Shown here: piece after piece, positions 221 to 38,625 of the stretch
Layout of the letters: each line of letters begins with the position of its first letter
Numbering within the stretch: the first letter of the stretch is position 1
DNA from: an uncultured Veillonellaceae bacterium
GTDB lineage: Bacteria; Bacillota; Negativicutes; JARBTT01
Assembly (NCBI GenBank): GCA_963805085.1
Contig: CAWDTA010000002.1
Span: 1,440,001-1,504,000 of the forward strand
Reading direction: 5' to 3'
Length of the DNA: 64,000 bases
Notes under the pieces: model-generated
The model's database searches: none
The model's input: only the letters and a program-made list of their open reading frames with translations
What the model was told of the DNA's origin: nothing
Made by a program: the position numbers and the translations under genes

Positions 221-446
221 AGGAGCGTTTCTTAATTGTCATGGTACTTCTGGTTTGACCTTTATGAATTATTGATAAAAAATAGCTTAGATCAGTGAGA
301 CTAAATAGAATATAAACAGTAAAAAGGAAAATCATACTCAATTATGTATGATTTTGGCGAAAAATTGAGGTTTCATGAGAGTGTGTAAGTTTAATAGCTA
401 AAAGTCGATGGTTAAGGGATAGAATAAGGAACGTCCTCGCCTGTCC
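221..446 (+). repeat. Array repeat copy 1 (diverged; core starts at 302)
   Basis: taaatagaatataaacagtaaaaagg...tttcatgagagtgtgtaagtttaat...aaggaacgtcctcgcctgtcc; 5' arm aggagcgtttctt. Confidence 0.85.
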
Positions 447-657
447 GTAGATATTTGTCAGGTTATGGTTCATACGTTATTAGTAAGATGACTTATAAAT
501 ATTTAGGGACGAAAAGGATTTCATCATCTATAAGGAATTAAATAGTAAATGTCTTTTTGGTTGATTGGAGTTGATAAATATGAGTGTACCAATGAAAATA
601 ATTTAAATAAAGGCGTAAAAGCGCCAATTTGGAGAATGATGCAGGAGGGAGAGAACA

Positions 658-815
658 ATGGCTAATGTGACTGCCAATGGAATTCAGATGAAGTATGATA
701 CTTTCGACGATAGGTCTTCTTCAGTCTTACTATTAATCGCCAGCAATGGTGCCAACTGCTTCTCTGGGATGCTGGGTTTTGCGAATTATTAGCAAAAATG
801 GGCCTTTTTTTTATT
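658..815 (+). pseudogene. alpha/beta hydrolase N-terminal fragment
   Basis: RBS ggaggg; MANVTANGIQMKYDTF...LLLI, then frameshift to QLLLWDAGFCELLAK. Confidence 0.6.
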
Positions 816-1180
816 ACAGAGAGAATTCCATAGGGCATACCGTGAAGACTCCGAATTTCCAATTATTATTCTTTTCTAAGCGCATACTCCCGGAACAAAA
901 ATATCTATATTGTACGAAGCACTAGGCTAAATAATTTAGGCAGTAACTATCGTGGACGTTCCATAAGCATCGATAAAATATCAAACAATAGCTTCCGCTG
1001 CTCTAATGATAAGGAGCTCATTACTTTATCTGAAGCGGAACTCATTACCGATAGATATATTTTAGAAGAAAAGTTAAGTCAGTGTTAAATATAGATAGAA
1101 TAGCTGACCGCTATCACATTGTAAAATAAATTACCTCATAGCGATATATTTTGAAAAAAACTCCTGCTAAATAATATAAA

Positions 1181-1238
1181 TAAAATGTACCCTATAGAGT
1201 AGACTTCTCTCATTGTCTACTCTATAGGGTACATTTTA
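1181..1238. repeat. Perfect 24-bp inverted repeat with 10-nt loop (mini-element or terminator)
   Basis: taaaatgtaccctatagagtagac-ttctctcatt-gtctactctatagggtacatttta. Confidence 0.85.
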
Positions 1239-1266
1239 GAATCCGGCAGGAGTTCCCTTTTAGCCA

Positions 1267-1818
1267 TCATTTTATAAGATCGAAACTTTTATTTAACCAA
1301 CAGATATAACTTTCCTCACGCGATATAGCTTTGGTAAGAATAAGGTAATCTGTTAGTTCTTCTGCATCTAAATCGTATGGATTCTTGTTGTCACTAAAAT
1401 GTAAAGTGAATTGCTTGTTTAAATACGATAATTTTTCCGTTCTTAATTTTAGCTGATTTTTGAATAAGAATGGAATGTCCTCTTTAGGAATATGTTTCAA
1501 AAAATATATTTTTAAAACAAAAACATCTTTTTCTGTTTCAATGCTATGATCTATTGCAAGCAGCCATGTCTGAAGTGCTTTTTTGCCCGCTGTTGTTAGT
1601 TTATAATTTTTCTTCTCGATTCTCACGCTAGATCTATCTATATGCTGAGAAATCAATTCTTCTTCTAATAGTTTTTTTAGCTCAACATAAATTTGGCTCT
1701 GCTTTGCGCTCCAAAACTGTCCAATCGCTTTCTGAAATTCAGCAGCAATATCGTAGCCGCTCATTTCTTGCTTACTCAATAGACCTAGTATTGCATATTT
1801 TAAAATTCGACGTCCCAC
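1267..1818 (-). CDS. padR: PadR family transcriptional repressor
   Basis: LKYAILGLL..SGYDI..SQIY.EL wHTH plus PadR C-terminal domain; divergent from padC. Confidence 0.9.
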   Translation of the reverse strand: MGRRILKYAILGLLSKQEMSGYDIAAEFQKAIGQFWSAKQSQIYVELKKLLEEELISQHIDRSSVRIEKKNYKLTTAGKKALQTWLLAIDHSIETEKDVFVLKIYFLKHIPKEDIPFLFKNQLKLRTEKLSYLNKQFTLHFSDNKNPYDLDAEELTDYLILTKAISREESYICWLNKSFDLIK

Positions 1819-1936
1819 TAAATAACCTCCATTATAATGATAAAAATTATAGATCTTCTAACTGATTAACTATCTAGGCAATGCTTTATCATTCTTTCTT
1901 GACAATATTATATCACAAGTATATATTAATCATACA

Positions 1937-1984
1937 AACATTTATATACAAACATTTATATATAAATGTTTGTATATAAATGTT
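1937..1984. promoter_or_regulatory. Perfect 48-bp palindrome in padR-padC intergenic region, probable PadR operator array
   Basis: aacatttatatacaaacatttata|tataaatgtttgtatataaatgtt, just downstream of TTGACA..TATATT. Confidence 0.65.
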
Positions 1985-2019
1985 ATACGTAAAAAAAATA
2001 TGATGAGGAGAAATGTATA

Positions 2020-36296: not shown

Positions 36297-36455
36297 TAGG
36301 GACCTCCTGTTTATTTCGCAATTTTGATACTGACAATAATCTTTTTCTATTATAAGGTAATTTAAGCGGGATGGGAAGGTATAAGAAGATAATGGCAAAG
36401 GAATAGAAAAAATGTCACTATCTGTAGGAGAATCGATAGTTAAGGGGGAGCATTA

Positions 36456-37019
36456 ATGCCAAGAATCTTTGGGGAAAGAATAATATTGCGAGAATATAAA
36501 AAAGAAGATTTGCTATATATGCGAAAATGGGTTAATGACCCAGAAATAGTAGATAATTTATCTGACGTATTTTTACATGCTAATACAATAAATGAAACGG
36601 AAAACTTTCTGAACAGTATACTTGAGGGGAAAAATAATCAACAAAAAAATTTTGTTATTGCTGATAAACAAACTGAAGAATATATTGGGCAAATTGATTT
36701 AATTAATATTGATTGGAAAAATCGTGTTGCTGAAATGGGTATCGTTATTGGCAATAAAGATTTACTAGGAAAAGGGATTGGAACAGAGGCTATCAAGTTA
36801 TTACAAGCTTTCGTTTTTGAGAGATTAAATATGAATCGGTTAGAATTAAATTTGCATGATTATAATGAAAGAGCTTATAAATGTTATTTGAAATGCGGCT
36901 TTGTGGAAGAAGGACGACTACGGAAAAAATTTTTTATTAATGGTCAATATACCGATGTTATTCTGATGGGAATACTTCGTGATGAGTATAATAGGGGGAG
37001 TAAAATATCAAGTATATGA
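36456..37019 (+). CDS. GNAT acetyltransferase (RimJ/RimL/SpeG-like)
   Basis: GIVIG....GKGIG, N.RA...Y.KCGF..EG.LR. Confidence 0.92.
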   Translation: MPRIFGERIILREYKKEDLLYMRKWVNDPEIVDNLSDVFLHANTINETENFLNSILEGKNNQQKNFVIADKQTEEYIGQIDLINIDWKNRVAEMGIVIGNKDLLGKGIGTEAIKLLQAFVFERLNMNRLELNLHDYNERAYKCYLKCGFVEEGRLRKKFFINGQYTDVILMGILRDEYNRGSKISSI

Positions 37020-37099
37020 TCAAAGAAGGCTTTAAAAGTATTGCAATAAGGCAATACTGGATAAAAAATTATAGACAAAAGTTTGAACAAATATTGACA

Positions 37100-37210
37100 A
37101 ATAAAATATAAACTCCTGCTGAATTCTGTATGAATTTGGCAGGAATTTTGAGCTTTCATGAGAATATGTAAGTTTACTAGTTGAAAAATTATGGTAAGTT
37201 GACGGAAAAG
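37100..37210 (+). repeat. Array repeat copy 25
   Basis: aaactcctgctgaattctgtatgaatttggcagg...ttgacggaaaag. Confidence 0.9.
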
Positions 37211-37245
37211 AAATCTTTCCGCCTTCTATGGGGGAATAGAACTTT

Positions 37246-38451
37246 ATGAATAATATTAAGGCTGTATTTTTTGATTTTGATAATACAATAGTAGATTATG
37301 TAAAATCAGATATAGACAGTCTGAGGATGGTAGCAGAATCTTTGCCAATTACAGTAGACACAAATGTTTTCATTGACATTGCTGTTGAGCAAATTATGAA
37401 GTTTCATGGCTTGGTTAGTGATGGTAAAGTGGAGCCTAGTGATATACATAATTATCGTTTTTATAACACCATGAAGTATTTTTCTGTTGAATTGAAAACA
37501 AAATATTTAGATATTTATTTGCAACATTTCATAAAATCTACAATTTGTTTTTCGGGAGTAGAAGAAGTAATAAGATATTTGTATGGTAAGGTTAGATTGG
37601 GAATAGTAACCAATGCCTATAATTCGGAAGAACAAAAACGAAGAGTTGACAATACAGGGATAACAGGGTATTTTGATGATATTGTTGTATGTGCAGATAT
37701 CGGAGCCTATAAACCAACCAAAGAGGCATTTCTTTATTTGGTTGATAAGTACCGCTTGAAGCCGTTTGATTGTTTATATATTGGTGATTCGGAAGAATAT
37801 GATATAAAAGGGGCTAGAAATGCTGGTTTATATACAATAAAGATGGCTCATAATTCATCAAAAATAAATTCAGTAGCAGATTTTGTTTGTGATGATTTTC
37901 AGGATTTATTTAAATTATTCTTGGAAAAATTAGTGGTAAAGAATAATGTGGGAATTGATGGGGATATTTCCTACAAAGAATGTGCACAAGATGTAGCTCT
38001 TGCAGATGTAAGTAAACATACGATGCAGCTTATCTGGTTTCTGAATAATGATGATCGTTTACTTGATCATTTTGGTTCTAATAGCTCAGTTAAGATAACT
38101 GAACAAGAATTTTTAGAAACCAATAGAAAATGGATTGTCGAAAATTATGCGGATATGTTTGCTATCGTCTTAGGGAAAAAAGCAATAGGGATTATATCTT
38201 TAAGTCACAAGGATACTATCAACCATACAGCACGAATTGGTTATTGGCTCGGGAGTGCTTATTGGAATAAGGGATGCGGAAGTAGGGCTTTTAAACTTAT
38301 GCTTAGCGAAGCAAAGAATAGAGGCTTTAAATATGTATCTTCTACGATTAGAAAAGACAATGTAGCATCTATAAAGATATGGGACAAATATGGCGCACAA
38401 ATCATATCTAGTAATGGTAGATATTCGTGTGTTATCAACCTTGAAAATTAA
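37246..38451 (+). CDS. HAD-family hydrolase fused to a GNAT domain
   Basis: FFDFDNT, KP, IGDS...DI.GA; C-terminal IGYWLG..YWNKG.GS, N.AS. Confidence 0.87.
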   Translation: MNNIKAVFFDFDNTIVDYVKSDIDSLRMVAESLPITVDTNVFIDIAVEQIMKFHGLVSDGKVEPSDIHNYRFYNTMKYFSVELKTKYLDIYLQHFIKSTICFSGVEEVIRYLYGKVRLGIVTNAYNSEEQKRRVDNTGITGYFDDIVVCADIGAYKPTKEAFLYLVDKYRLKPFDCLYIGDSEEYDIKGARNAGLYTIKMAHNSSKINSVADFVCDDFQDLFKLFLEKLVVKNNVGIDGDISYKECAQDVALADVSKHTMQLIWFLNNDDRLLDHFGSNSSVKITEQEFLETNRKWIVENYADMFAIVLGKKAIGIISLSHKDTINHTARIGYWLGSAYWNKGCGSRAFKLMLSEAKNRGFKYVSSTIRKDNVASIKIWDKYGAQIISSNGRYSCVINLEN

Positions 38452-38475
38452 ATATCGCAGTAGAAACTGTTATGT

Positions 38476-38500
38476 GAGTTCGAATTCCTCCGGGCGCACA
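38476..38500 (+). other. tRNA(Arg)-like 3' fragment (T-arm + acceptor strand), possible att remnant
   Basis: gagttcgaattcctccgggcgcaca; no 5' half of a tRNA. Confidence 0.5.
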
Positions 38501-38534
38501 AGCTAAATACAATAAAAGTAAGGCTTCAGAGTTC

Positions 38535-38625
38535 TGAGCCTTTATGAGAATATGTAGGTTTAGTATCAAAAAGTTGATGGTAGGGTGACGGAAAAGGAAC
38601 GTCCCCGACTGTCCGACTGTCGTCC
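38535..38625 (+). repeat. Array repeat copy 26 (3' half) with ccgactgt tandem tail
   Basis: tgagcctttatgagaatatgtagg...gtgacggaaaaggaacgtccccgactgtccgactgtcgtcc. Confidence 0.93.

Follow-up and report, generated by a model that had tools for sequence, protein, structure and literature searches.

IS608 and ISDra2 transpose as single-stranded DNA in a replication-coupled manner, the left-end hairpin of IS200 doubles as a transcription terminator, and Ton-Hoang et al. in 2010 reportedly tied the orientation of IS200/IS605 elements to the replication fork. Repetitive extragenic palindromic sequences (REPs) mostly follow gene 3' ends, according to PMC3733652, and their neighbouring genes are unidirectional or convergent; the same text gives families of terminal inverted repeats (TIRs) as moderately abundant and at times clustered, and TIRYT genes as flanked by GGGG[AT][CG]A[CG] repeats. 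The TIRtrons/TIRYT of Di Nocera et al. (2013) correspond to the TnpA-REP subclass 2.1, with a C-terminal helix-turn-helix (HTH), of Quentin et al. (2018). Enzymes of the REP-associated tyrosine transposase (RAYT) and TIRYT type are widespread, and in the available part of PMC6006769 the HTH-bearing subclass 2.1 has no REP-like repeats nearby, no repeat family tied to it and a role given as unknown. In the present work a stretch of 64,000 nucleotides (the window; positions 1440001-1504000 of contig C2 in the 4.21-Mb, low-GC genome of an uncultured Veillonellaceae bacterium, G000) was analyzed, in which a non-coding element recurs between small groups of genes. With a probability of about one half, this element is an intergenic repeat of the REP/RAYT kind, composite and non-autonomous, and not an attC-like recombination site, the cassette-like turnover of the genes between its copies being a by-product.

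Sixteen copies were aligned, and an nhmmer profile derived from them returned 68 matches over the whole G000 genome, or 66 once palindromic echoes had been removed. The E-values, down to 2e-37 for copies in the window, exclude chance. A repeat search of the window revealed 22 copies of a 145-nt unit together with several overlapping families, all direct, between positions 270 and 38621 (numbers without a contig prefix are window positions), the copies being 60-90% identical over 130-230 nt. A first-pass annotation made from the sequence alone had listed 26 copies of 135-230 bp at 221-38625, always on the + strand. Twenty-five of these are + profile matches and the twenty-sixth (29006) is a tail-only fragment at 29007-29102; the size agrees with a core of approximately 130 nt extended by tails of 20-110 nt. 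The array itself proved to be larger than listed. It begins 58 kb upstream of the window, with 45 + copies in C2:1382324-1478592 and four further copies up to C2:1526477, which places 49 of the 66 copies within 144 kb, or 3.4% of the genome. Past two giant open reading frames (ORFs) the copies start again at C2:1514032. The remaining 17 copies, to which the proposed clustering does not extend, are dispersed on C2 (five), C4 (four, all -) and C5 (eight, all +), yet none of them runs against the direction of replication.

Based on GC skew, the replication origin lies near C2:800 kb, and the leading strand is + on C2 past 800 kb, - on C4 and + on C5. All 66 copies are on the strand of positive GC skew (leading strand); since the strands of the copies match the skew strands of C2, C4 and C5, all have the same direction relative to replication, which is stronger than the co-orientation first reported. 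Of the 81 array ORFs with 100 aa or more, 50 are on the + strand, in agreement with the earlier description of genes in either orientation, and genome-wide the leading strand carries 82.7% of 2475 ORFs. Orientation is therefore stricter in the elements than in the genes between them. In 36 of the 49 array copies the element sits behind a + gene, the next gene being + in 19 cases and - in 17, a placement that agrees with the one published for REPs (PMC3733652). No inverted doublets of the kind found in REPINs or in bacterial interspersed mosaic elements (BIMEs) were present in the genome profile search, where all copies were direct and opposite-strand hits were palindromic echoes of copies. The copies at 34548 and 34887 have almost nothing between them.

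The anatomy of the element was derived from the consensus of the 16-copy alignment. Its 5' end is an AT-rich box (TAAATAGAATATAAAC) with stop codons in three frames, at or shortly 5' of which several upstream + ORFs stop; judged by eye, a possible sigma-70 promoter in this box would have a spacing to candidate -35 hexamers that ranges from 16 to 19 across copies. The second part is a hairpin of 17 pairs with a 5-nt loop, followed by a T-run (TTTTGAGCTTTT), and the invariant block ATGAGAATATGTAAGTTTAATATC comes 3' of these. Pairing is kept in 91.2% of 706 cells (42 copies) compared with 32-58% in slid controls, eight of the 17 pairs change on both sides, and the covariation score was reached by none of 500 shuffles. 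Two positions are G-U/G-T in 28-29 of the 42 copies and can pair only in the + strand, which identifies the + strand as the one that folds. The fold z-score is -2.6 for the hairpin RNA and -4.0 for the DNA of the - strand. A stable stem-loop with a U-run and covariation is what an intrinsic terminator has, three hairpin copies were flagged in a terminator scan of 27000-38700, and on these sequence features the hairpin and T-run most likely end transcription of the upstream gene.

The same scan called a promoter-like site, TTGGCA-N18-GAGAAT, at eight copies, with the -35 box inside the 3' arm of the hairpin; this motif (TTGGCA-18-GAGAAT) is kept in 37 of the 66 copies and may act as a promoter. 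Behind it lies a leader of approximately 45 nt, ending GATGGCAAGG. The fourth part, the tail, consists of TGACGGAAAAGGAACGTCCCC and 8-11-nt units ending in TGTC; it carries a small GACG...CGTC stem, with TGTC about 10 nt behind the stem. A 45-nt tail insert (type B), with further short repeats behind it, was found in 10 copies. The AT-rich 17-bp hairpin at the 5' end does not resemble the GACG...CGTC stem of the tail, and no conserved 5' target was seen in the alignment. Truncation and junction points in the copies are scattered, after the T-run, before TGGCAAGG, before TTTAATATC and within the 3' arm, so that the few readable junctions show no fixed crossover as in attC.

Rfam gave no window match at the gathering threshold, and in 34480-35800 chance-level scores only (best 28 bits, gathering score 61.7). 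A coding role was discarded: the consensus ATG opens a frame of 14 codons which is broken by indels between copies. Likewise, the 92-aa ORF at 8898-9176 was not accepted as a gene, having no Pfam match and a low-complexity translation.

A search for a RAYT or IS200-like HUH transposase, as the first-pass annotation had suggested, was productive. Twenty-four Pfam Y1_Tnp matches were identified in G000, all on the leading strand. Five are identical IS200-like copies between C2:238565 and 815817, and from these the element is absent. Approximately 17 others, proteins about 250 aa long, fall into at least five subfamilies, each with its own pair of inverted terminal repeats, and by sequence they look like TIRYT or TnpA-REP subclass 2.1. 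The subfamily termed RAYT-5 has three copies, C2:1948648-1949385, 1951296-1952033 and 2044258-2044881, the third without the first 38 codons. The gene ends ...AAAAGTTGACGAAAAAGGAACGTCCCC and is followed by one to four TAGTGTCC units, with the reverse complement in the 5' flank. Two copies (C2:1948648-1949440 and 1951296-1952110; L059) are identical in protein and 5' flank and carry one and four TAGTGTCC units, respectively, while the third (C2:2044258) has three units of a TAGTGTCC variant. An alignment of the three RAYT-5 gene ends and seven element tails has invariant columns TGAC..AA.AG.AACG.CCC and the TGTC unit: the tail of the element matches the last codons of RAYT-5 and its 3' terminal repeat, TGTC units included. 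The tail motif is rare in G000 outside the element copies. A strict RAYT-5-type tail is present in 18 of the 66 copies and the type-B insert in 10, while 38 have neither and consist of hairpin and promoter box only.

The RAYT-5 protein matches Pfam Y1_Tnp with E = 3e-14 and scores 75.6 bits on NCBIfam NF047646 (REP-associated tyrosine transposase; curated cut-off 80). It has a C-terminal extension of about 120 aa, in which no Pfam HTH was found at E 0.01 or better. The TIR motif GGGG[AT][CG]A[CG] is present in subfamilies 1 and 2 and nearly so in RAYT-5, and RAYT-5 orthologues in other Negativicutes have the same end structure, including the tandem units. The RAYT-5 genes, the candidate source of the enzyme, are 470-570 kb from the array region; to this extent the enzyme was rightly said to be outside the window, which does hold a transposase, of the IS110 family, merely inserted in one tail. 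This insertion was considered as the engine of the array and rejected, being an insertion within one tail; a further gene of the IS110 family is found shortly 3' of a RAYT-5 copy.

The copies and related features of the window are as follows.

301-412, + strand: element copy with a degenerate hairpin, tail to about 460 (nhmmer E=5.8e-18)
2677-2802, + strand: element copy, hairpin with two compensatory pair changes, long tail with repeats like those of RAYT subfamilies 1 and 3, to about 2910 (profile)
3977-4033, + strand: 5'-truncated copy (profile positions 72-128), RAYT-5-type tail (profile)
6053-6174, + strand: element copy (nhmmer E=2.7e-33)
7769-7891, + strand: element copy (nhmmer E=1.8e-29)
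9198-9322, + strand: element copy (nhmmer E=1.2e-19)
11708-11830, + strand: element copy, RAYT-5-type tail (profile, tail alignment)
14493-14615, + strand: element copy, type-B tail insert (profile)
15712-15824, + strand: copy without the hairpin 5' arm, within which the upstream ORF terminates (profile)
16247-16363, + strand: element copy, tail of several tandem units ending in TGTC, to about 16420 (profile, tail alignment)
19259-19375, + strand: element copy (profile)
19782-19907, + strand: element copy, type-B tail and RAYT subfamily 1 repeat, to about 20010 (repeat family D8, profile)
20826-20931, + strand: element copy (profile)
23754-23879, + strand: element copy, type-B tail to about 23982 (repeat family D8, profile)
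25545-25665, + strand: element copy, type-B tail (profile)
26997-27061, + strand: 3'-truncated copy (profile positions 3-67), with a fuller element at the same junction in contigs of the public runs X1 and X2 (profile, contigs)
28219-28343, + strand: element copy, RAYT-5-type tail with tandem units to about 28395, immediately 5' of the ribosome-binding site (RBS) of the DJ-1/PfpI gene (profile)
29007-29102, + strand: leader and type-B tail fragment, without hairpin (repeat family D9, contig joints)
29923-30049, + strand: element copy (profile)
30699-30823, + strand: element copy, tail interrupted by an IS110-family insertion (profile, Pfam)
30826-32405, - strand: IS110-family insertion sequence, ends approximate, outside the repeat family; transposase split into ORFs 31467-32147 and 30945-31451 (Pfam PF01548, PF02371)
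32406-32432, + strand: displaced 3' half of the tail of copy 30699 (sequence reading)
32811-32936, + strand: element copy, RAYT-5-type tail and tandem unit (profile, tail alignment)
34548-34659, + strand: element copy, type-B tail and RAYT subfamily 1 repeat, to about 34762 (repeat family D8, profile)
34887-35012, + strand: element copy with the top profile score in the genome, E=2.4e-37 (profile; used for folding and as query)
35580-35705, + strand: element copy, RAYT-5-type tail and tandem unit (profile, tail alignment)
37102-37206, + strand: element copy (profile)
38529-38592, + strand: last copy of the window, 5'-truncated (profile positions 64-127), RAYT-5-type tail and tandem unit, to about 38625 (profile, tail alignment)

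Compared with REP or BIME sequences and their RAYT genes (REPtrons), the likeness lies in short structured extragenic repeats, mainly behind gene 3' ends between unidirectional or convergent genes, and in a transposase gene, here RAYT-5 with its Y1 HUH enzyme, flanked by inverted copies of the same sequence. Unlike REPtrons, the composite measures approximately 170 nt and includes a promoter-like site as well as a long terminator-like hairpin, its copies are all direct, three quarters of them lie in 3.4% of the genome, and the enzyme gene is multi-copy rather than single-copy. With TIRYT and subclass 2.1 are shared proteins of about 250 aa with a Y1 domain and a C-terminal extension, and terminal inverted repeats with a GGGG[AT][CG]A[CG]-like start, in RAYT-5 a near match only; the difference is that a single terminal repeat is here fused to other modules and amplified in one orientation. 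IS200/IS605 elements and the palindrome-associated and miniature inverted-repeat transposable elements (PATEs, MITEs) share Y1 HUH single-strand chemistry, subterminal hairpins and replication-linked orientation. IS200/IS605 differ from the present case, where the two element ends have dissimilar hairpins and no conserved 4-5-nt 5' target. The first-pass annotation saw no described system in the array, a view which is not upheld, as the element appears to belong to the described REP/RAYT (TIRtron) kind. A literature search found no such array described for Negativicutes, while supplementary RAYT lists may include Negativicutes members; titles and abstract starts of the Massilibacillus literature hold nothing on repeats.

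Cargo was compared with that of a genome of the same genus in an incomplete assembly (G001), a genome of another family (G004) and contigs from public sequencing runs. The first-pass annotation had proposed such a comparison and named an identical cargo order in relatives as a refutation of its view; no such identity was found, as order and content differ in all three. The flanks of the array are approximately 95-97% identical between G001 and G000; to the 39-kb array of the window, G001 has only a few matches at paralogue level (77-79%) and element copies, and the order of its units is different. A unit of an AraC gene and a short-chain dehydrogenase/reductase (SDR) gene (C2:1432452-1434517) is missing on one G001 contig, where the joint is directly behind the tail, ...CCCCAGTC|AATG; in G000 this unit has no element at its right end. 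An alpha/beta hydrolase gene (unit X, C2:1438163-1439093) occupies another array position in G001. It starts directly behind the tail in both genomes (...TTCGTCC in G000, ...TTTTGTCTC in G001) and has an AT-rich box and hairpin at the far end in both. At one site G001 has a fuller element where G000 keeps the tail only. At C2:1435800-1435860 G000 has the AT-rich box only, fused to the same downstream sequence, and G001 (C26) the AT-rich box and hairpin, which indicates that the hairpin module can be gained or lost alone.

In G004, 11 + co-oriented copies of the full composite with tails were found in the 120 kb examined, a syntenic zone in which genes are strongly reshuffled. The order of two neighbouring genes (C2:1419539-1420958) differs between G000 and G004 with junctions that lack the element, so that reshuffling in the zone is only partly element-linked. 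Contigs from four public runs (at least 85% likeness, window 27000-36900) cover single units at unequal depths and join them in other combinations; stretches left uncovered, e.g. 32958-34281, say nothing on absence. One contig of run X3 links the GNAT unit 36447-36898 to the GNAT unit 35046-35486, and the DJ-1/PfpI unit has the same ends (28392-28397, 29001-29005) behind three different tails, those of G000, X1/X2 and X3. Since repeat joints in metagenome contigs are error-prone, weight was given only to contigs linking two different pieces of cargo, and few junctions were readable.

Taken as a composite repeat of the REP/RAYT kind, the element would have arisen once and then multiplied as a unit. 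It would spread through single-stranded DNA at the replication fork, with the Y1 enzyme acting in trans, and this coupling would fix its orientation relative to replication. Copies would settle at gene ends, where they would serve as insulators made of terminator and promoter. About 50 direct copies in 144 kb would make a recombination-prone region tolerant of change, in which the units between copies might be lost, gained and reordered by homologous or illegitimate recombination at or beside the copies, giving cassette-like turnover without a dedicated cassette recombinase. The scattered truncation points of the copies argue for ordinary recombination and deletion. The array would then be one of REP/RAYT type, of unusual size and uniform orientation, within a plastic region, with dedicated gene capture possible.

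Several observations weigh against this explanation. Only 28 of the 66 copies have a RAYT-5-type tail or type-B insert. Only G006 and G019, whose element matches are limited to the hairpin, yielded close orthologues of RAYT-5 (80% identity), while G004 has full elements and a best RAYT-5 match of 40%; element and enzyme thus co-occur uncleanly, and across 41 genomes the co-occurrence of RAYT-5 and the full element is weak. There is one terminal repeat and no inverted pair, and the two hairpins are unlike each other, which fits neither the left- and right-end scheme of IS200/IS605 nor a REPIN doublet. Classical REPs are dispersed, whereas 49 of the 66 copies are here in 3.4% of the genome. Lastly, several cargo junctions lie exactly behind the tail GTC (unit X behind two different tails; the joint ...CCCCAGTC|AATG), and DJ-1/PfpI has the same ends behind three tails. 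Random recombination predicts no such precision, and this keeps alive the explanation that genes are captured by HUH chemistry.

According to that explanation, which is possible though rather unlikely, the array is a gene-capture platform driven by a Y1 HUH enzyme, and the TGTC behind the GACG...CGTC stem is the site of cleavage and joining on the + strand. Units ending in the AT-rich box and hairpin would be cut out in single-stranded form and attached 3' of the TGTC in another copy, and a co-oriented array would build up as ORF-attC cassettes enter an integron, by single-strand HUH chemistry. It is similarly doubtful that an enzyme of TIRYT/RAYT type cuts behind the tail TGTC on the lagging-strand template and that a functional analogue of the integron exists in diderm Firmicutes, its units gaining their own terminator and promoter. 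Unit X lies directly behind different tails in G000 and G001 with box and hairpin at the far end in both, the absence of the AraC-plus-SDR unit in G001 leaves a joint right behind ...CCCCAGTC, and the DJ-1/PfpI unit starts at 28392-28397 behind the tails of G000, X1/X2 and X3, all as capture would have it. The same holds for the orientation of 66 of 66 copies with the replication fork, for copies with almost nothing between them, e.g. 34548/34887, and for one and four TGTC units in otherwise identical RAYT-5 copies, as repeated cutting and joining might yield. However, no circle and no empty-site pair with a fixed nucleotide was seen, and the right ends of units vary (after the T-run in G001, before TTTAATATC for DJ-1) or lack the element, as in the AraC-SDR unit of G000. 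G004 keeps its array without a close RAYT-5, and the readable junctions are a handful, among metagenome repeat joints that are prone to error.

The first-pass annotation had compared the array to a superintegron with a site of its own. Of its points, strict co-orientation, local clustering, the lack of attC sites and cargo turnover are upheld, whereas the single capture site is wanting, the junction points being scattered. With integrons and with clusters of attC sites lacking integron-integrases (CALINs) the array shares co-oriented structured sites after units, units of mostly promoterless size with 1-3 genes, content hypervariable between relatives, and folding of one strand. It differs in having no attC, nearby IntI, fixed crossover, attI or Pc end; in addition, each element appears to bring its own promoter, in the form of the promoter-like site. 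Pairs of attC boxes (RYYYAAC...GTTRRRY), noted earlier as lacking, were found by regular expression at none of the 66 copies (320 nt around each, both strands) and not in the consensus. No IntI-type recombinase lies beside the array, the three PF00589 matches of the genome being at C5:313363, C2:942668 and C4:2593, the nearest about 440 kb away. The tyrosine or serine recombinase suggested for the array ends was found at neither end.

An equally tentative alternative, also improbable, is that the element is a regulatory module without any transposase, a terminator-promoter-leader block whose copies would spread between gene ends through homologous recombination or gene conversion as well as through the exchange of whole units between strains. 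The repeats would be homology arms, for which 130-230 nt at 60-90% identity could suffice, and the likeness of the tail to the RAYT-5 end would go back to one old insertion copied along. A hairpin-pattern scan of the genome collection gave 32 loci, with hairpin halves in records of Sporomusa, Pelosinus, Propionispora, Lucifera and Massilibacillus. Across genera of the Negativicutes the sequence of hairpin and promoter-like box is conserved, the genes in front of them being unrelated and most loci having a single copy; this conservation speaks for a regulatory module, as do the full elements of G004 without a close RAYT-5 and the 38 of 66 copies with neither strict RAYT-5 tail nor type-B insert. 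The full composite with tail was also identified in a Pelosinus record (L053), and the tail is conserved in three genera, which suggests that the tail matters and counts against a transposase-free module. Homologous recombination alone, moreover, cannot make the first new junction between gene and element, and it leaves unexplained both the orientation of 66 of 66 elements with replication, compared with 50 of 81 array genes, and the shared direction of the copies dispersed over C4 and C5.

That the hairpin is the attachment site of a large serine recombinase, and that the array grew by repeated integration of circles carrying the site, is very improbable. At eight other Negativicutes loci or more (L004, L008, L029, L031, L035, L036, L043, L051) a large serine recombinase gene or fragment precedes the hairpin, with its stop codon about 30 nt away, and the imperfect inverted repeat of the hairpin, 39 bp, is of a size typical of such attachment sites. 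At most hairpin loci elsewhere there is no recombinase nearby. A tblastn search of G000 with two hairpin-locus fragments (E 1e-3 or better) found no relatives of these recombinases, and no serine recombinase lies near the array: the two PF00239 matches of the genome, C2:199946-200383 and C5:702517-702969, are far from any copy. The compensatory changes in the stem indicate base pairing and not a double-stranded protein site. The recombinase of the hairpin loci (C-terminus ...IVYDR...L.V.YK) is in part present as 5'-truncated fragments, and ATPase or defence-like genes are often downstream; these loci may represent one end of a mobile element which either carries the hairpin or targets it.

Xer-driven modules (integrative mobile elements exploiting Xer, IMEX, or pdif-like) stacked at a dif-like site, for which co-oriented units and, by eye only, a faint likeness between a dif arm and two AT-rich boxes might speak, are close to refuted, as the array is not at the skew switch (approximately 560-660 kb from the C2 skew minimum at about 800 kb, with a replichore of about 2 Mb), none of the three PF00589 matches is near and no 11-6-11 site is conserved in the alignment.

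In this genome, then, one terminal repeat of a RAYT/TIRYT-type gene stands within a composite multiplied approximately 66 times in one orientation, and the units bordered by this element vary among close relatives and among environmental populations. The tail, its TGTC units and one defined strand make a concrete candidate substrate for the enzyme, and the array is a natural system in which to ask whether REP-type repeats merely decorate plastic regions or help to build them. If the element does work as a terminator-plus-promoter block, it would provide newly acquired genes with a compact natural insulator for their expression. Integrons are not known to occur in Firmicutes, so that a functional analogue there would be notable, if true.

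Pfam searches of the window cargo identified PadR, PadC, a ThrE-type exporter, a papain-like peptidase, methyltransferases, a uridine-kinase-like protein, a gluconolactonase-like protein, GATase, CAT, HxlR with an FMN reductase fragment, LytTR, aldehyde dehydrogenase, AraC, GH26, a C39-like peptidase, DJ-1/PfpI, four GNATs and a CDP-alcohol phosphatidyltransferase. Of the cargo first proposed, PadR/PadC, CAT, methyltransferases, peptidases and GNATs are thereby confirmed, while the toxin-antitoxin-like modules found no confirmation in family searches. The cargo was also called adaptive; the upstream part of the array, however, includes ordinary chromosomal genes as well, namely those of histidine kinases, a GGDEF protein, SelO and a class II fumarase/aspartase-type lyase.

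The ThrE-type unit (2915-3914, -) has a homologous gene region in G004; the G000 unit is cut short at the next element, whereas the G004 region runs on, which means that a truncated gene is present in at least one unit. The module 32453-32744 contains a hydrophobic ORF of 29 codons (32546-32635, -) that has a strong RBS, near a promoter-like site (32454-32482) and a terminator-like hairpin (32660-32689), and on these features the module looks like a type I toxin-antitoxin module. By eye, the same 293-nt module is present in G004 at the intergenic site orthologous to that of a hairpin-only copy of G000 (C2:1583141).

The G000 assembly consists of only five contigs yet is rated 83% complete with 6% contamination, an odd rating which may come from marker sets poorly suited to the lineage. 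IS110-family elements are known to target REPs. Further genes of this family were observed at C2:1949577-1950050, just downstream of a RAYT-5 copy, and, as a third, beside a RAYT at C3:13744-14226; insertion sequences of the IS110 family seem to home to RAYT terminal repeats. Directly behind the array of the window are two giant + ORFs (41084-47551 and 47558-62419) of 2155 and 4953 aa, which have internal repeats about 4.5 kb apart (repeat families D10, D12, D13 and D15) and, judging by this layout, look like modular synthetases.

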